Shown here one piece after another: positions 8,418 through 55,831 of a DNA stretch of 64,000 bases (positions are counted from its first letter, which is position 1; the number at the start of each line of letters is the position of its first letter). The DNA comes from a virus (taxonomy: Duplodnaviria > Caudoviricetes). A program made the position numbers and the translations under genes. The stretch covers positions 15,390-79,389 of IMG/VR virus record IMGVR_UViG_3300032318_000487. One strand, written 5' to 3'. The notes beneath the pieces were generated by a model, which saw nothing but the letters and a program-made list of their open reading frames with translations, had not been told where the DNA came from and did not search any database.

Positions 8418-8493
8418 TGGCGGTCCCGGCAGGACTCGAACCTGCATATGACAGTTTAGAAGACTGTTGCCTTATCCATTAGACTACGGAACC
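8418..8493 (-). tRNA. tRNA-Arg(TCT)
   Basis: GGTTCCG/CGGGACC acceptor, ACAGT-CTTCTAA-ACTGT, CCA. Confidence 0.92.
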
Positions 8494-8834
8494 TGATCTC
8501 TGTGTTCTTCTCGGTGACAGTTGGCACAAAGGCACTTACACTTATCTAGTTCAGCCTTTATCTTGTCCCAACTCCACAATCTCATTTTATTCCAGTCAGC
8601 ATCTTTGCTGTTAGGATCAGTATGATGAAACTCAAGGGCGCCATAGTATCTATCATAACCACATGCCTCGCATTTACCACCTTTGTATCGTATAGCATCT
8701 AACTTGCGCTTTTTCCATCTTTCAATACAGTATTCATTGAAACACTCGCGGCATCTTGATTGCCACTTCTTTGCGTTCTTTTTGTATGCTGTATCTTCAT
8801 TCAACTCTTTTTGACAACCAGAACAGACTTGCAT
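8484..8834 (-). CDS. HNH endonuclease with Cys zinc-binding motifs
   Basis: CxxC motifs, ALEFHHTDP, ELDKCKCLCANCHREEH; last 10 nt overlap tRNA-Arg. Confidence 0.85.
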   Translation of the reverse strand: MQVCSGCQKELNEDTAYKKNAKKWQSRCRECFNEYCIERWKKRKLDAIRYKGGKCEACGYDRYYGALEFHHTDPNSKDADWNKMRLWSWDKIKAELDKCKCLCANCHREEHRDQVP

Positions 8835-8870: not shown

Positions 8871-8888
8871 TATAGTGTTCCGCTGATT

Positions 8889-8899
8889 GCTACGGAGCC
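8889..8899 (-). pseudogene. probable 5' remnant of tRNA-Arg
   Basis: GGCTCCGTAGC versus GGTTCCGTAGT at the downstream tRNA start (9/11 identical), located just after a promoter. Confidence 0.5.
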
Positions 8900-8910
8900 G
8901 TTATTCTGTT

Positions 8911-14421: not shown

Positions 14422-16971
14422 TTACTTGAAGAAGTCCTCAAGCGTTGATCTATGCTCAGTTTTCCAGTTGATGCTGTCCAGAATGATCTTGAGTGGATCA
14501 AGAAAAGACTTATCGAACTGTGTGTCATAGTCAATGTACTTAACAATGTCAAACTCAGGTGGAATCTTATCAGTGAAGGCAATGATGTTACTTCGAATAT
14601 GATTTGGTTCACGAAGATACATAAACTTGATCTTCTCACCTTCTTTGATTGTTTCATAAGTCTTGTTGAGCTTCAATTCTTTGAGAAGATGATTGTAGAT
14701 GAGTGAACCACGGACACCAATTGGTGTCCCCTTCTCATACACAGATCCATTCTTTCCAGAGTATCGATTCAAGCCATTCACACTTCTAGGAAAAGCTATG
14801 TCAGATGGTAACAAAGTTTTAAATTCTTTTCTGAAGTCTTCGATGAAGTTAATCATATCATCGTTGCTACCATCAAAGATTACATTGATTGCTTCTTTTA
14901 GCTTTGCACGACAAGCTGATGGTGTTGAAGACTTGATCATCTCAAGACCCATGATCTTGATCTTTGGCTTTGTGTAAGCAACACCTTCGTTGTTATGAAC
15001 GTTTAGAATGTAACGCTTCTTTGATGTCCAGATACCCTTGTCAGCAAGAGCCTCACGCTTCATTTGCATTTTTTGTTCGAAGGCGTTAACATATCCAGCA
15101 AGCTCATCATAAGCTTTGTCAATGTATGGTTGAATTTTAGCTTCGCAGATACGATCCATGAAGTTGATAACTTCTGATGTTGTAGCAGATGGATTCGCTT
15201 CAAGATAAGTCTTGCAGACCAATCCACTAAGAGACAGATAAATCGAATCCGTATCTGACGCAATAACATAATCTTCATTCTCCGTCCTAAGGATTTTGTT
15301 TAAGTACTCATTGAGCTTGTTTTCAATCCAACGAATAGACAACTGACCAGCAGTTGTGATTGCTGTGGCCTGTCGAATGTCAAAGAAGCGAAAGTATTGA
15401 TTACCTAACGCACCATAAGCTGAGTTGAGTGATACTTTCTTAGCAAGCTGAAGATTGTTATAGCGAGCAATTCGCTTTTCAATCTCATATCTTTTATCTA
15501 TGTCTTTCTCACCCTCAAGTTCTTTACGAGCTTCAATAGACTTAGCTTTATACACTGTACGATTTTCATACATTGCTGCCATCAACTCAGGCAGAAAGCC
15601 TTGCTTGTTTGTACGAAAGAACTGACCGTTTGGTGTCAATGTACAGTCACTTAGTCCTGATGTGTCTACACTTCTTCCGAGAAGATTATCCACAGAAACA
15701 GAACAAGAAAGAATATTACGATGAAGATTTCCATAATTTGAAGGTTCCATTAGAGTTTCTGGTGAGATGTTATACTGCATAATCAAATGTGGATACAGAG
15801 AGTTTAAGTCGAACGACGCAACCCACTTGTGCATACCAACAAGAGGTTCTTTTACATACGCACCAACGAAGGCAGCATCTTTACCATGATGCTCTGATGG
15901 AGGAATAACAATGTTCTTTTTCTTCAGATGATTGAAGATGATTGCATCCCACATACGAACCTGTGCGAACACATCATCGTAGTTGCACTTGTTATCGTAA
16001 GCCAAAGTGAGAGCAAGCTCAATTAGCTTAAGCTTATCTTCTAGCTTTTCGACAAGCTTAACGTCTTTGATGTTATACTCAATGAACTTCTGATAGTTAT
16101 CACGATATAGAGTATGAAGATTACCATCATACTGAATCTTACGTTCATTGACTTCTACACTTGCTATATGATCAAGCTTATAACTTTCTTGTGACTGACC
16201 ACCTGGTGCAAACTTCTTGTACAATTCAATGTAATCAAGAATACTGATACCAGATGGCAGATATGCCACTTGATCACGACCCATGATTGTCACTGTTCTT
16301 GTGTCAAGATAGTTCCAGGGTGACAAACGCTTTGCAAAGTCTTCACCCAGAAGATTTGTGATACGATTAACTAGGTACGGAATGTCGAAGAACTTTACGT
16401 TCCATCCAGTAATGATGTCTGGATAGTTACCACTCCAGTCGTCAACAAATCGTTTGATCAAATCAAACTCATCTCGACAATGGATGTATTCAACGTCTGT
16501 ATCTTTGTTGTTGTATACACCACAACCATAGACTTTGTACTTGCTACCCATCTTGTATGTGATAGCAGTGATAGGTTCAGATGCAGTAGCAGGTTCAGGA
16601 AAACCATTCTCTGAACCCACTTCGATATCGATGTTGCAGATGTTGATTAGATCGATGTTCCAATCGATGTCGTCAGCGAATGTGTCCGCAATAAATGCGT
16701 ACTCATACTTTTGATTGCCGTAGATTTTGAAACCTTCTACACCTTCATATTGCTTGATGAAGTCACGACACTCACGAATAGTACCAGGTCTAATCTCGGA
16801 TACATGTTCACCGTAGATTGTCATGAACTCAGTTGGCTTTGAAGAGGGAACATATAACGTGGGATGATACTCAATCTTATGACGAACACGACGACCGTTG
16901 TCAATTCCACGATACAGGATCTTGGAACCAAAAACTTGAACATTAGTGTAATGTGTTTGCTGAGACATCAT
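14422..16971 (-). CDS. gp43: family B DNA polymerase (T4 gp43-like)
   Basis: DIEV exonuclease, SFDLNSLYP, KVSLNSAYG, SDTDS, KKRY motifs. Confidence 0.98.
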   Translation of the reverse strand: MMSQQTHYTNVQVFGSKILYRGIDNGRRVRHKIEYHPTLYVPSSKPTEFMTIYGEHVSEIRPGTIRECRDFIKQYEGVEGFKIYGNQKYEYAFIADTFADDIDWNIDLINICNIDIEVGSENGFPEPATASEPITAITYKMGSKYKVYGCGVYNNKDTDVEYIHCRDEFDLIKRFVDDWSGNYPDIITGWNVKFFDIPYLVNRITNLLGEDFAKRLSPWNYLDTRTVTIMGRDQVAYLPSGISILDYIELYKKFAPGGQSQESYKLDHIASVEVNERKIQYDGNLHTLYRDNYQKFIEYNIKDVKLVEKLEDKLKLIELALTLAYDNKCNYDDVFAQVRMWDAIIFNHLKKKNIVIPPSEHHGKDAAFVGAYVKEPLVGMHKWVASFDLNSLYPHLIMQYNISPETLMEPSNYGNLHRNILSCSVSVDNLLGRSVDTSGLSDCTLTPNGQFFRTNKQGFLPELMAAMYENRTVYKAKSIEARKELEGEKDIDKRYEIEKRIARYNNLQLAKKVSLNSAYGALGNQYFRFFDIRQATAITTAGQLSIRWIENKLNEYLNKILRTENEDYVIASDTDSIYLSLSGLVCKTYLEANPSATTSEVINFMDRICEAKIQPYIDKAYDELAGYVNAFEQKMQMKREALADKGIWTSKKRYILNVHNNEGVAYTKPKIKIMGLEMIKSSTPSACRAKLKEAINVIFDGSNDDMINFIEDFRKEFKTLLPSDIAFPRSVNGLNRYSGKNGSVYEKGTPIGVRGSLIYNHLLKELKLNKTYETIKEGEKIKFMYLREPNHIRSNIIAFTDKIPPEFDIVKYIDYDTQFDKSFLDPLKIILDSINWKTEHRSTLEDFFK

Positions 16972-19884: not shown

Positions 19885-20150
19885 ATAACTTCAGCTCCCA
19901 ATAGACGCCAACCATCAATTGGTTGATCTTTGAACATATCATACATTTGACTCTTAGCTATATCATAGGCACTTTCCTTAGTCTTAGCGAGTACTATGAT
20001 TTCTTTTTCTTCATAATAGTCTCTACGATAAGGTTTCAACTTTACTTTAAACTTCTTCATACCCTTGTTCTGATCTCTATACTGCTTCCAGTATCCATAT
20101 GGCTTGTTTTGCCATATGTCTTCCATTTCTTCTTTAGTCAAGCCTATCAT
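19881..20150 (-). CDS. hypothetical protein
   Basis: ORF track. Confidence 0.65.
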   Translation of the reverse strand: MIGLTKEEMEDIWQNKPYGYWKQYRDQNKGMKKFKVKLKPYRRDYYEEKEIIVLAKTKESAYDIAKSQMYDMFKDQPIDGWRLLGAEVI

Positions 20151-20439
20151 GATACTTGGTTTCCCATTCAGTTTGCTTCACTGGATCTTTCAATGGATAC
20201 TTTTTACACACTTCGAAGTAGTCTTTAGATGGTTCTCTTGGATTCATCTTATGATACTTAGTTGCTTTCTCAATTCGCTTTTGTTCCATTATCCTCAGAT
20301 ATTCTTCATCAGGAACACGACCGTCTCCAGTATACTTGCACCAGTCTGAGAAATAAACATTGTTGATGAATGTTTTACCAAAAATCCAGTCGTCAGACTT
20401 CGATGTGATCTTGTGGAACACGTCATAGTTATTTGACAT
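20134..20439 (-). CDS. hypothetical protein
   Basis: ORF track. Confidence 0.6.
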   Translation of the reverse strand: MSNNYDVFHKITSKSDDWIFGKTFINNVYFSDWCKYTGDGRVPDEEYLRIMEQKRIEKATKYHKMNPREPSKDYFEVCKKYPLKDPVKQTEWETKYHDRLD

Positions 20440-20446
20440 TATATGA

Positions 20447-21166
20447 TTAGCCTTTGATTTGTGGATACTGAACGCTATATTCCATGCGAAGAATCATTTC
20501 TGTTTCTTGCCAACTCTTCACATGATAATACTGATCTGAAAGGATTGCAATATGAAAATCGTTTTCATCTTCGTTACATTTATCACCAAAGAAGATGATC
20601 TTTTTATCATCTTCAGTTATAAAAGGAAAAATCTGACCTTTGTCATTTCCTCTTAGATGGATGTCAATTCCTAAATCACCAGCAATGTAACAGTCTAGTC
20701 TGGGTAAAAGAGACCTAATCTTTCTAACAAGATATGCTCGTTCTTTAGTCTTTTTGTCCCATTCAATATATTCCTCACGTTGCTTCTTAGTTGCGTTTCT
20801 ACCCAGAACTGAAAAGTTAACAAGTCCTGTTTTCTTTTCAAAGTGATAGCCAGTTCTGGTTGCGAAGAATGATCTGTTCAACAAGGTCTCAATGATATCT
20901 TTCTCATGGTAAGTTAAATCAAATCTGTTCGAATAGATTTTCTTACTATCAGAATGATACTCATTACCACCACATGTGAAAATGCCTTCACATGCTTTAA
21001 TAAGATCAGGACCGAGTTGACTCTCAGTCTGATCTAAATCGTTTCCGGTAACAATGTAAACTTTGTTCTTTAGACAGAAAGACTTAAAGAAGTGTTTAAA
21101 GTCTGTGTCCATTTCTTTCTTGGAGGGTGTTAGTGTGCCGTCAACGTCGAAAACAAAGATATACAT
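20447..21166 (-). CDS. HAD-IIB phosphomannomutase-like protein
   Basis: FDVDGTLT, VTG.D, NFSVLGR, GND..K, FFGDK...ND. Confidence 0.85.
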   Translation of the reverse strand: MYIFVFDVDGTLTPSKKEMDTDFKHFFKSFCLKNKVYIVTGNDLDQTESQLGPDLIKACEGIFTCGGNEYHSDSKKIYSNRFDLTYHEKDIIETLLNRSFFATRTGYHFEKKTGLVNFSVLGRNATKKQREEYIEWDKKTKERAYLVRKIRSLLPRLDCYIAGDLGIDIHLRGNDKGQIFPFITEDDKKIIFFGDKCNEDENDFHIAILSDQYYHVKSWQETEMILRMEYSVQYPQIKG

Positions 21167-21182
21167 TCATACCTCAAATATA

Positions 21183-21256
21183 TGGAGCGGGCAACAGGAT
21201 TCGAACCAGTATCTCTAGCTTGGAAGGCTAAGGCACAACCTTTATACCATACCCGC
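21183..21256 (-). tRNA. tRNA-Gly(TCC), 5' end overlapped by the GIY-YIG ORF
   Basis: GCGGGTA/TGCCCGC acceptor, TTAGC-CTTCCAA-GCTAG, CCA; D-stem rich in G:U pairs. Confidence 0.88.
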
Positions 21257-21754
21257 GAGTTTTTCTCTGTGCTTTCGTTTGATAGCTTCAGAGATGTTTT
21301 TTCTATGTTCATCAGATTTGGGTTTATCTTTTAGGGCGATAGAATTTTTGATTGAAATGGCATTCTTTTGTTCTTCAGAAATAGGAATACCTTTTTTATG
21401 AGTATTGCCAAAATGTGCCATTCTTTTCTTAGATTCTTCCGTATGTCGTTTACCTTTGAATTTGGGTATATCATTTGAATTGATATACCCAAATCCTCCA
21501 TTACCACCTTCACATAAATTATAAGACGATTCTGACAAAATAACAAGTTCTCTTTCTTTGTTATTCATCTCTTCTTCATTATCAAACACAAACAAAATTT
21601 CTTTCCTAAATGATTCTTTACCATACTTTTTGATAGCTTGTTTCAATAGTTTTCCAGAACCAAGATATGAATCATTTATATCTTTTGTTTTATGTTTTCC
21701 TATATAAAAGCGATCATTCACAGTGTTAACAGTTTTATAAACAATATAAAACAT
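21242..21754 (-). CDS. GIY-YIG (Seg-like) homing endonuclease with NUMOD3-like repeats
   Basis: YIVYKTVN....FYIGKH, YLGSG, E.ELV, YNL..GG.GG; KHTEESK / KPKSDEHRK repeats. Confidence 0.9.
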   Translation of the reverse strand: MFYIVYKTVNTVNDRFYIGKHKTKDINDSYLGSGKLLKQAIKKYGKESFRKEILFVFDNEEEMNNKERELVILSESSYNLCEGGNGGFGYINSNDIPKFKGKRHTEESKKRMAHFGNTHKKGIPISEEQKNAISIKNSIALKDKPKSDEHRKNISEAIKRKHREKLAGMV

Positions 21755-21787
21755 AAGGCTGACACTCTACCCCTGAGTTATACCCGC
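21755..21787 (-). pseudogene. 33-nt 5' half of a tRNA-Gly, ending at the first anticodon base
   Basis: GCGGGTA-TA-ACTC-AGGGGTA-GAGT-G-TCAGC-CT-T then directly the endonuclease ATG; collinear with the first 33 nt of the downstream tRNA-Gly. Confidence 0.9.
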
Positions 21788-21904
21788 ATTTTTATTCTTA
21801 TCTGTTTTAGGCTTTAGTTTTGGATCAACAGGTTTGATTTCTTCTTTTGGAGGAACGAAGTCAGCACTTGCAGGTCTAAACCAACTTTTAATCCATTTCC
21901 ACAT
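21767..21904 (-). CDS. small Lys/Pro-rich protein (45 aa) ending inside the tRNA-Gly remnant
   Basis: MWKWIKSWFRPASADFVPPKEEIKPVDPKLKPKTDKNKNAGITQG; AGGAG SD, ATAAATA box upstream. Confidence 0.6.
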   Translation of the reverse strand: MWKWIKSWFRPASADFVPPKEEIKPVDPKLKPKTDKNKNAGITQG

Positions 21905-21951
21905 TGAAAACTCCTGTGTTGCTTTCAATGTATTTATGAAAATATATCATT

Positions 21952-22140
21952 CTATGTGTTGGATGTCAATAACAATCTTCTTTTTTCCGATTCGATATTG
22001 ATCTGTTCCTTTCGCTGATTATCCGCACCGAACCATTCCGTAATCTCATCGTAAGTTCTTCCACAACCTATACACACTAAAAGCTCTTTCAATTCAGTAT
22101 AGGAACAAATCTTAACACAAGGAGAATTACTTCTTGTCAT
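21952..22140 (-). CDS. DUF1289-like Cys-rich protein
   Basis: SPCVKIC ... CIGCGRT..EI..W. Confidence 0.75.
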   Translation of the reverse strand: MTRSNSPCVKICSYTELKELLVCIGCGRTYDEITEWFGADNQRKEQINIESEKRRLLLTSNT

Positions 22141-22244
22141 TATTTTCCTTCTTCTTTGTGTTCTTTTCCCTCAACTTCTGAAGTCTCTCTCTTGCTGCTT
22201 GAGACTTTTCCTTATGTGAACTTAGAGTTGATCTCTTCTTTTCC

Positions 22245-23027
22245 TCAGACATATTCTTTCCTCTTTATTAACTTTGCTGATAAGTTGGTGACTGTATCTA
22301 AGTTTTTGACTGAATACACTTTAGCGTTTGAATCACTACAGACCCACATCTCATCTCGAAATCTATCTGGTGCTGTTCTCAACCAAGAGTCTCTAGTTTT
22401 TGATTGAAGGTTTTTCCACCAGTCAATGGTTGATGGATCAGGTAACCTTCTTAAGTAGCTTGAGTTTGACCACCAGAAGTTACCACTGAAGTGTGGACAA
22501 GGTTCGTCAAAGTAATTAACACCAGCAACATCATGAGTATTTAGCGACTCAACACATCTTTCCCAGTTTTCGATAACACCCCAATTCAAGAACTGTCTCC
22601 AGTAATAGTAGTTCTTGAATGTACCGATGTTTCTCTTTTTAAGATGGTTATCAACTGAAGTTATGCCCTTCGTGTGTAGATACAAAGCAGTGAAGACATC
22701 ATTCTGAGAATCATTCCATATTCTTTGAAGAATGACGTTTTCAGTGATTGTCTCTGAGTTGTTGATGCCACTTAGCATGACACCATCATTTGAGTGATTG
22801 TTCTTGAACACAATCAACTTTGCATTTGGTAGTGCAAAGCTCATACAAAGATCAGCAAATATCTTGGTTCTCTCATCTTGCTGAGAGACGCATGTTATCG
22901 TAATATCATCAAACGATGAAAGAAGATGATGGTCTTCCATCATCTTCATCTGTTCCATGAATGGATATACCCAAGTTGAATACTCATCACTTAGGTATAC
23001 ATGATAGTACAAATACTTTTTCATCAA
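22245..23027 (-). CDS. glycosyltransferase-like hypothetical protein
   Basis: LYLHTKG, DVAGVN, HFSGNFWW motifs; terminal gene of the sugar cluster. Confidence 0.55.
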   Translation of the reverse strand: MMKKYLYYHVYLSDEYSTWVYPFMEQMKMMEDHHLLSSFDDITITCVSQQDERTKIFADLCMSFALPNAKLIVFKNNHSNDGVMLSGINNSETITENVILQRIWNDSQNDVFTALYLHTKGITSVDNHLKKRNIGTFKNYYYWRQFLNWGVIENWERCVESLNTHDVAGVNYFDEPCPHFSGNFWWSNSSYLRRLPDPSTIDWWKNLQSKTRDSWLRTAPDRFRDEMWVCSDSNAKVYSVKNLDTVTNLSAKLIKRKEYV

Positions 23028-48475: not shown

Positions 48476-48504
48476 TTGACAAGGGGTTGACAAAGTGGTA
48501 TAAA
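48476..48504 (+). promoter_or_regulatory. plus-strand (antisense/divergent) sigma70-like promoter
   Basis: TTGACA-N17-TATAAA on the strand opposite all genes. Confidence 0.5.
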
Positions 48505-48532
48505 GGCTATGCCCTGTTGCAAATGAATTAAT

Positions 48533-55316: not shown

Positions 55317-55831
55317 CGTTGTAACTCCTTGCAACTGTCAAAATGCCATCTACTCATCTGTGGTTTTGGTCCCAACTTTTTACAATGAGGGCATTCAACT
55401 TTTTTTCTTCTCTTGGCTTTTTCTGCCATTATAGCTTTCTGATTATCATCAAACTTATATCCGATTCGATGTTGACAGTAACTCAAACCTAGCTTTTCAG
55501 CATTTTCGCGTCTTTTTTCGACAAAACATTTACGATCTATTCTTTGATTCCAATCTGGAAGACCACCACCTTGACCTCCAGGCTTTAGATTAAGACATTT
55601 AGAATCTTTTAATGTTTCTAATGTTACAAGTTTTGACTCAATAAGTAGAGCTTTCTCATAAGTGTTACAAAACTGAACTATCTCTCGAACGAAATCACTA
55701 GGATGTTTGTTATATTTAGCTCTAAATTTCTTTCCTGATCCAATGTATCCGTCATCAGGTGTTCCTTTATGGACACCGATGTAGTATTCATCTGTTATAA
55801 TGTTAGTCCATCGATAAATGAAAGACTTCAT
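55313..55831 (-). CDS. GIY-YIG (Seg-like) homing endonuclease with C-terminal CxxC/HFD.C domain
   Basis: FIYRWTN....YYIGVH, Y.GSG, NL..GG.GG, CPHC...G....M.RWHFD.CK. Confidence 0.88.
   Translation of the reverse strand: MKSFIYRWTNIITDEYYIGVHKGTPDDGYIGSGKKFRAKYNKHPSDFVREIVQFCNTYEKALLIESKLVTLETLKDSKCLNLKPGGQGGGLPDWNQRIDRKCFVEKRRENAEKLGLSYCQHRIGYKFDDNQKAIMAEKAKRRKKVECPHCKKLGPKPQMSRWHFDSCKELQR

Follow-up and report, generated by a model that had tools for sequence, protein, structure and literature searches.

How does a homing endonuclease gene come to lie between a severed 5' half of a transfer RNA (tRNA) gene and a second, complete gene for the same tRNA, into which its reading frame runs? To our knowledge, homing endonuclease genes are thought to persist inside other genes only where an intron or an intein removes them, and to lie between genes otherwise. 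The locus that raises this question is on the minus strand of a 64,000-nucleotide (nt) stretch of viral DNA, positions 15,390 to 79,389 of IMG/VR record IMGVR_UViG_3300032318_000487; the whole of this stretch, which is part of a 79-kb viral contig estimated to be 47% complete, is called the window below. The window genome (G+C content 39%) encodes a T4-type DNA polymerase, a gp46-like protein and portal, major head, sheath and helicase proteins, a gene content by which the phage can be recognized as a T4-like myovirus. Our analysis leads us to conclude, with a probability that we put at roughly 85%, that the locus is an intron-less homing cassette which overwrites alleles of a tRNA-Gly gene, and that it consists of a SegB-like nuclease gene fused by a 15-nt overlap to a tRNA-Gly(UCC) gene of its own.

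The element is made up of the following parts, type A and type B being two allele classes of tRNA-Gly(UCC) that are defined further below:

21755..21787, minus strand: orphan 5' half of the resident type-A tRNA-Gly(UCC) gene, 33 nt, equivalent to standard nucleotides 1-34.
21242..21754, minus strand: gene for a SegB-like GIY-YIG homing endonuclease of 170 amino acids (aa), with its ATG at 21754 and zero spacer after the orphan half.
21242..21256, minus strand: 15-nt overlap of the nuclease open reading frame (ORF) with the 5' end of the tRNA, made up of the last four codons and the TAA.
21183..21256, minus strand: complete tRNA-Gly(UCC) with encoded CCA, its D arm and anticodon stem both of type B, found by ARAGORN and Rfam.

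This anatomy confirms what a preliminary description, drawn from the letters of the window by eye, had claimed: a 33-nt tRNA-Gly 5' half (21787-21755) abutting the start codon of an endonuclease (21754), and an ORF that ends within a second 5' half of equal length belonging to a complete tRNA-Gly (21183-21256). The orphan half comprises the acceptor strand, a perfect D stem of four base pairs, a 7-nt loop, the 5' strand of the anticodon stem and then C-T-T, and it terminates at the anticodon base U34, with no 3' half after it. It occurs a single time in the window, where shuffled sequences give an expectation of 0 matches even when three mismatches are allowed, and nhmmer flagged it as lying outside every tRNA called by ARAGORN. 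The two 5' halves of the window are identical at 21 of 33 positions (64%), and the 3' strand of the anticodon stem pairs fully with the new half and forms a C-A mismatch with the old one, again as had been described. The downstream tRNA, which holds the stop codon of the nuclease gene (TAA, 21244-21242) in its D loop, matches the full length (1-71) of Rfam model RF00005 with 54.2 bits against a gathering score of 29, has one non-standard pair in the T stem and is presumably functional.

The origin of the orphan half can be read from other viral genomes. Its 26-nt core is present in 74 viral contigs, and in 73 of them an intact tRNA-Gly(UCC) continues from it; we refer to this allele class as type A. 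All 33 nt are matched in at least 16 of these 73. The uninvaded gene that the preliminary description had predicted thus exists, and the orphan half is the remnant of an invaded gene and likely a left homology arm for homing. The downstream tRNA represents the second allele class, type B, which has a different D arm and the anticodon stem YTAGC/GCTAR, and which is found in more than 118 contigs, mostly without any nuclease gene. Because type B is common without a nuclease, the cassette, as judged from these alleles, carries one natural version of tRNA-Gly and has invaded the other, with no half purpose-built for it. The idea of a homing element that brings its own replacement half needs revising on this point: the homing element itself is borne out by a filled and an empty site, by recurrence in other lineages with both polarities and by a tRNA-Trp counterpart, all described below, and what it brings is a whole, common type-B allele.

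Type B itself is not uniform. A subgroup (L167, L169, L172, L183, L194, L225, L234, L239, L245 and L250) has the aberrant T loop GAGCGTT instead of GTTCGAA, which would be without the recognition motif of SegB; in L183 the tRNA-Gly of this kind was missed by ARAGORN. A weak nhmmer match to the type-B D arm on the plus strand of the window (48495-48515, E 4.9) is probably due to chance.

Filled and empty states of the site can be compared directly in a sister element. Nucleases 91-92% identical to that of the window are encoded by contigs L077/L078 (the same contigs as L244/L240) and by two metagenome contigs. The sister element opens with a type-A half that represents a second variant and has CTTC at its end; then come a 33-nt spacer, in which a TATAAATA box and GGAGG are found, the gene for the nuclease, and a complete type-B tRNA which overlaps the end of the ORF exactly as in the window. 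Its empty partner is contig L282, with an intact type-A gene of the sister's own variant, in a phage that is 99.7-100% identical apart from this site. Between L282 and the filled contigs listed for this comparison (L240, L078, L244 and L303) there are 0-5 differences over 1.3-1.9 kb of upstream flank and 0-4 over up to 5.9 kb downstream, and the sole structural change is the replacement of 33 resident nt, from the anticodon to the 3' strand of the acceptor stem, by 597 nt, so that the whole 3' part of the resident tRNA has been exchanged. A presence/absence polymorphism of a mobile element in near-identical genomes is therefore observed for the sister element. Its direction can also be read from the sequences: the intact tRNA of L282 is self-consistent and its acceptor strand is the one found in the orphan half of the filled contigs, whereas the 3' end of the new tRNA mismatches that half, a combination which marks the insertion as the derived state in this lineage. 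A metagenome scan with the ORF-end/tRNA junction yielded only more copies of the L077-type phage.

The same junction, CTTC-ATG, is found again in five more Gly lineages besides that of the window, and in both polarities. In L039 the orphan half of the window, with the same junction and a homologous 30-nt spacer, precedes a 70%-identical nuclease and another type-B tRNA. The reciprocal arrangement, in which a type-B half ending in CTTC is followed by a similar spacer, a nuclease gene and a complete type-A tRNA, is present in L288 and in L293/L299/L302; the nucleases are here 56-62% identical, without the middle C-terminal repeat, and the ORF stops inside the tRNA. These reciprocal cases were found by an nhmmer profile search for orphan 5' halves, a simple D-arm heuristic having missed type-B halves owing to their G-U-rich D stem. 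Intact type-B genes with the anticodon stem of the reciprocal halves occur in 65 contigs, and L326 is a syntenic empty relative of L288, at lower identity than in the sister pair. The 15-nt overlap of ORF and tRNA is shared by L077/L078 and L183, and the overlap in L039 uses a different frame.

Nor is the design confined to glycine. In L017, L306 and L313 a resident 5' half of tRNA-Trp(CCA), cut at the anticodon loop, is followed by a late-promoter-like box, the gene of a 46%-identical nuclease and a different complete tRNA-Trp, while the intact resident tRNA-Trp is found with the same immediate flanks in eight contigs (L022 and seven more). Over the kilobases around the site, identity between L017 and L022 is 91-93%, and 711 nt in the former stand in place of 35 nt in the latter. 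Related nuclease genes without any half before them also occur immediately upstream of a type-B tRNA-Gly (L183, L233 and L224), which is plausibly the ancestral, intergenic configuration. In the spacers of the relatives, the TATAAATA late-promoter-like box is located in the loop of a hairpin that covers the ribosome-binding site or the start codon, the same pattern as the late promoter and hairpin that regulate T4 nuclease genes (PMC2988022).

Some further arrangements of nuclease and tRNA genes were seen in the course of these searches. In phage tRNA arrays, many homologues of the nuclease gene are preceded by a TATAAATA-like box (L077, L084, L085, L087, L107, L129 and others), and their ORFs end 0-70 nt from the next tRNA or overlap it, by about 33 nt in the case of the tRNA-Leu of L107. 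In L245, L316 and L317 a 29-nt tRNA-Gly-like fragment and a late-promoter-like box precede a 285-aa Seg-like ORF. The last 50 nt or so of this ORF lie in an unusual tRNA-like RNA of 84 nt, whose anticodon is GCC and whose score on the tRNA-Sec model, 38.8 bits, is below threshold; we did not count this as a further case. Directly before the fragment, within a tRNA array, these contigs have an amber-suppressor-like tRNA with the anticodon CUA (L245:88-160, also in L316 and L317; 62.9 bits). Elsewhere in the window, an HNH endonuclease ORF (8484-8834, minus strand) ends about 10 nt inside a tRNA-Arg(UCU) gene (8418-8493). A putative tRNA 5' fragment upstream of the HNH gene (about 8885-8909) had no intact counterpart with up to four mismatches among some 380 fetched loci, and a second half-nuclease-tRNA case is not confirmed at this site.

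By sequence, key residues and fold, the protein of the window element is a member of the GIY-YIG Seg family. Its ORF matches the PHROG homing endonuclease family phrog_314 (2.9e-39), and BLASTP aligns residues 1-96 to T4 SegB with 47% identity (1e-26), there being no similarity to SegB beyond residue 96; the Pfam models SegE_GIY-YIG (24.7 bits, cut-off 25) and GIY-YIG (17.3, cut-off 22.6) are both slightly under threshold. An alignment of 22 homologues shows no variation at Y6, Y17, G19, E67 and N79, and mutation of Y17 and G19 abolishes the activity of SegB (PMC13096335). An AlphaFold2 model has a predicted local distance difference test score (pLDDT) of 90-96 for residues 1-80, and the top three Foldseek matches in the PDB are all I-TevI's catalytic domain (1mk0, 1ln0), at a probability of 0.99-1.0 and a weak E-value of 5e-3; a phmmer search of PDB sequences with the nuclease gave nothing relevant. 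The catalytic domain covers approximately residues 1-92. The C-terminal part falls short of the Pfam cut-off for NUMOD3 (14.5 bits against 20.4; E 0.034), and contains in the alignment three apparent NUMOD3-like helix repeats of the form H/S-x-E-x-K, which are matched by helices 106-116, 127-139 and 148-166 of the model, at low pLDDT. Between the window and L077 the nuclease gene has a synonymous divergence (dS) of 0.50 and a nonsynonymous divergence (dN) of 0.038, and the resulting dN/dS of 0.08 argues that the protein is constrained, that is, under purifying selection.

The last 80 nt or so of the ORF (window 21242-21320, minus strand, against L077:3435-3513) contain a single difference, with about 60 nt free of any. 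Such near-identity, despite the gene-wide dS of 0.5, suggests either a recent conversion or an extra constraint, for instance as tRNA leader or recombination arm. The window also has a second GIY-YIG homologue (55424-55822, minus strand); its open frame has 185 aa, and it is 31% identical to the nuclease at the tRNA-Gly gene over residues 4-134.

Comparison with the alleles of both classes divides the downstream tRNA of the window into two segments:

21209..21256, minus strand: donor-type (type-B) part of the tRNA, linear nucleotides 1-48, with 2 differences from the tRNA of the L077 cassette.
21183..21207, minus strand: resident-type part of the tRNA, its last 25 nt (T loop, 3' strand of the T stem, 3' strand of the acceptor stem, CCA), identical to the type-A alleles that share the orphan half.

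This tRNA would accordingly seem to be a donor/resident chimera. A tract that ends inside the tRNA in the window and one that ends just beyond it in the sister element can both be understood, because double-strand-break repair with co-conversion of variable length predicts both.

We propose that the nuclease cuts, in a co-infecting phage without the cassette, the other allele class of the tRNA-Gly gene at or near the anticodon loop; the cut is placed there because all lineages keep the resident sequence up to that point, including variant-specific bases 4 nt away. Repair templated by the cassette-bearing genome would retain the resident 5' half, up to U34/C35, as the left end, and would copy in the nuclease gene and the donor tRNA, with the right crossover falling between the T arm and a position just past the tRNA 3' end. 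The invaded gene would be destroyed and a working tRNA-Gly supplied simultaneously, which would make the invasion neutral for the phage and give the replacement tRNA the role that splicing has for intron-borne nucleases. The orphan half would persist as a scar, serving also as left homology arm in later homing, and in the window the conversion tract would have stopped inside the T stem to produce the chimeric tRNA. The carried allele may be immune through its differences in the anticodon stem, the D arm or the variable loop. For these two parts of the scheme, a cut at the anticodon loop and immunity based on the allele, we see the balance as tilting somewhat in favor. When such a structure first arose, one of the broken ends may have been joinable by microhomology only, the retained half serving as left arm from then on. 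The overlap of the ORF end with the tRNA would make the nuclease and the immune allele inseparable, and RNase P cleavage at tRNA position +1 would take the stop codon off the nuclease mRNA, a possible brake on expression.

Several observations weigh against this scheme. SegB recognizes the T loop and not the anticodon loop (PMC2330249; PMC13096335), and the window tRNA has a consensus T loop; however, the C-terminal, putatively DNA-binding part of the window nuclease is unrelated to that of SegB. Both the site of the cut and the immunity of the allele that is carried are proposed from comparison. In the L077 lineage the left crossover would have to fall only a few nt from the junction, an uncommon position in homologous repair, and the window tRNA has a U-U mismatch in its T stem, at the join between donor and resident parts, with an odd T at 21208. 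A near-identical empty relative of the window phage itself was not found: a metagenome scan with the junction of upstream flank and half gave 0 hits, a search of viral contigs with the neighboring HAD-like protein gave only proteins 37-38% identical, and distant syntenic relatives have either allele class at about the position of the window element, in immediate flanks that cannot be aligned. Since the window phage has no close relative, the insertion of its copy is argued by analogy with the sister element. Finally, in the window ATG follows CTT at once, where L077, L039, L288 and L302 have a spacer of 30-33 nt with TATAAATA and GGAG, and a good Shine-Dalgarno sequence is lacking where one would be expected ahead of the ATG; the window copy may be poorly expressed or immobile.

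It is from this last point that the strongest alternative draws its force, namely that the window copy is a fixed, immobile relic of past homing, in which loss of the spacer has silenced the nuclease and only the tRNA still matters. We consider this unlikely, with a chance of perhaps a quarter, and it differs from the homing cassette on present activity alone, the origin being the same in both. The ORF is intact and has kept all its catalytic residues, a dN/dS of 0.08 implies selection over most of the divergence, and what lies upstream could provide transcription and coupled translation. The features concerned, together with the downstream neighbor, are:

21767..21904, minus strand: small upstream ORF, 45 aa, with AGGAG and a 6-nt spacer before its ATG, as read from the sequence.
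21941..21969, minus strand: sigma-70-like promoter match, TTGACA and TATATT with a TG extension, separated by 17 nt, 11/12 matches.
20447..21166, minus strand: HAD-like hydrolase gene (phrog_29277), downstream neighbor, outside the element.

The promoter match stands upstream of the 45-aa ORF, the orphan half, the nuclease gene and the tRNA; it is a consensus match only, of a kind found 5 times in the region against 5.5 expected, and is suggestive. The 45-aa ORF, a putative gene, has its TAG in the D loop of the orphan half, 12 nt before the nuclease ATG, and it is possible that the nuclease is expressed by read-through transcription and by translation coupled to this ORF.

A very improbable alternative is that a free-standing Seg gene has simply come to lie, in a region rich in tRNA genes, beside a decayed tRNA pseudogene, the half being debris of array turnover or of segmental amplification of the SegB type and having nothing to do with what the nuclease recognizes. 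Chance proximity is easily imagined, since Seg homologues very often adjoin tRNA genes and SegB promotes microhomology-driven rearrangements between its own 3' end and tRNA 5' ends (PMC13096335), and since L183, L233 and L224 show nucleases directly before a type-B tRNA-Gly with no half at all. What chance does not provide is a half whose end is constantly at the same point of the anticodon loop, across six Gly lineages (that of the window among them) of either polarity as well as at tRNA-Trp, and which in all of these shares its isoacceptor, but not its allele class, with the downstream tRNA. The half is moreover undecayed, being 33/33 identical to live alleles, and the empty sites have one intact tRNA and no tandem pair. 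A tandem duplication was rejected for the reason just given, that empty sites hold a single intact tRNA, and an assembly artefact because the layout recurs in independent assemblies from different samples.

That the insert is an intron, or the locus a split tRNA whose old half is joined at the RNA level to the downstream 3' half, has hardly any probability left. The break is indeed in the anticodon loop, where bacterial group I introns of tRNA genes are located (PMC3984707), but an Rfam scan of positions 20000-23000 at the permissive threshold of E up to 1 matched only tRNA, and no intron or other RNA family. The ORF fills the insert with zero spacer and is followed by a complete, self-consistent tRNA. 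The old strand of the anticodon stem mismatches the 3' strand in the window, and in L077 no pairing is possible between the acceptor strand of the old half and the 3' end of the new tRNA, which excludes joining at the RNA level there. Least probable of all, to a degree that we regard as negligible, is that an element mobilized by an integrase produced the duplication as an att-type repeat. Integrative elements do often insert in tRNA genes and make the gene whole again with the copy of the overlapped part that they bring, but the insert of about 0.5 kb encodes the GIY-YIG protein alone and no integrase, and the repeat is a 5' half, 64% identical and of the other allele class, not a near-identical 3' att core.

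The homing cassette may be one side of a wider conflict. A more tentative proposal, to which we give slightly less than an even chance, is that phage tRNA-Gly(UCC) genes fall into two or more allele classes, each joined to its own diverged member of a single nuclease family, whose target would be the anticodon loop of the other class; the alleles would then be engaged in a reciprocal warfare in which cassettes overwrite one another. Retention of the CTTC-ATG junction across nucleases that are 56-92% identical, together with the Trp case, would make the design old and general. If this is true, homing endonucleases would have a third way of living in essential RNA genes besides introns and inteins, by replacement instead of splicing: a nuclease gene inside a tRNA gene would pay for the damage by delivering a replacement allele. 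It is a further possibility that the swapped anticodon-stem alleles alter sensitivity to host defense nucleases that cleave tRNA, and that the cassettes spread escape alleles. SegB was recently found to amplify tRNA genes which act against such defenses (PMC13096335). Defense-resistant tRNA variants could likewise spread by way of cassettes that replace one tRNA allele with another, and such cassettes bear on the turnover of phage tRNAs. Natural phage populations hold clean filled and empty sites, and cassettes in both directions between two allele classes. They thus offer a testable system for target choice and immunity of free-standing nucleases toward RNA genes, for the building of chimeric tRNAs by short co-conversion tracts, and for the coupling of nuclease expression to tRNA processing through the overlap of stop codon and tRNA. 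Orphan tRNA halves beside nuclease genes should be annotated as homing scars and not as random pseudogenes.

Among known systems, the closest in sequence is T4 SegB, a proven homing endonuclease that cuts tRNA genes and drives their inheritance (PMC2330249), and whose homologues are widely associated with tRNA genes across phages (PMC13096335). Both proteins belong to T4-like myoviruses and share a 47%-identical catalytic domain, both genes abut a tRNA (segB ends 5 nt before tRNA-Arg in T4), and the late-promoter-plus-hairpin control of SegB is found in the relatives of the window nuclease. SegB drags tRNA genes along by co-conversion (PMC2330249; PMC13096335). It is situated between tRNA genes, however, recognizes a T-loop motif that they share and cuts near the 3' end of many tRNAs, whereas the window element interrupts a single tRNA gene at its anticodon, with a 5' half left behind, and concerns one isoacceptor with two allele classes; its nuclease has an unrelated C-terminal part with three apparent NUMOD3-like repeats. 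The intronless homing of T4 SegF, SegG and SegE likewise links a free-standing GIY-YIG gene in cis to a resistant target allele, and spreads it by double-strand-break repair with co-conversion of flanks and marker exclusion, but these genes are intergenic beside their targets and leave no gene fragment, while here the insertion is inside the target gene (PMC2988022).

Free-standing nuclease genes inside functional genes of T4-like phages, without an intron, are known only as splitting insertions whose products reassemble: mobE in nrdA of Aeh1, mobA in the topoisomerase gene of T4 and a seg gene in gene 43 of phage 25 (PMC2988022). In those cases both pieces are functional, whereas the window element leaves one piece without function and provides a complete replacement gene. 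Those group I introns that interrupt the anticodon loops of tRNA genes (PMC3984707) resemble it in their position in the gene and in the harmless invasion of a conserved RNA gene; they differ in that here there is no ribozyme and no splicing, and function is restored at the DNA level by a second copy.

The nearest parallel in logic comes from fungal mitochondria, where mobile ORFs (mORFs) carry a replacement gene end into atp6 of Allomyces and into atp6, atp9, cox2 and nad3 of Glomus (PMC3630166). There too an intron-less nuclease ORF is accompanied by a foreign copy of the disrupted part, which keeps the gene functional, and by a native, duplicated remnant, and the hybrid genes that result resemble the chimeric tRNA of the window. 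All three of these hallmarks (nuclease ORF, foreign functional copy, native remnant) are present in the window element, as a likeness of design only, with no sequence relationship and in mirrored orientation: the mORFs reside in protein genes of eukaryotic organelles, are mostly of the LAGLIDADG type and have the carried 3' end upstream of the ORF, often fused to it in frame, whereas the phage element resides in an RNA gene and has the carried 5' part, up to a whole tRNA, downstream of the ORF and overlapped by it. The preliminary description had not recognized the layout as one already described. For tRNA genes and for phages this stands, as a literature search with partial coverage of journals found no account of the design; it does not stand for the principle, which was already described in mitochondrial protein genes. 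The version in a phage tRNA gene is new, and the pairing of a nuclease with a replacement gene end is one that it shares with the mORFs of fungal mitochondria.

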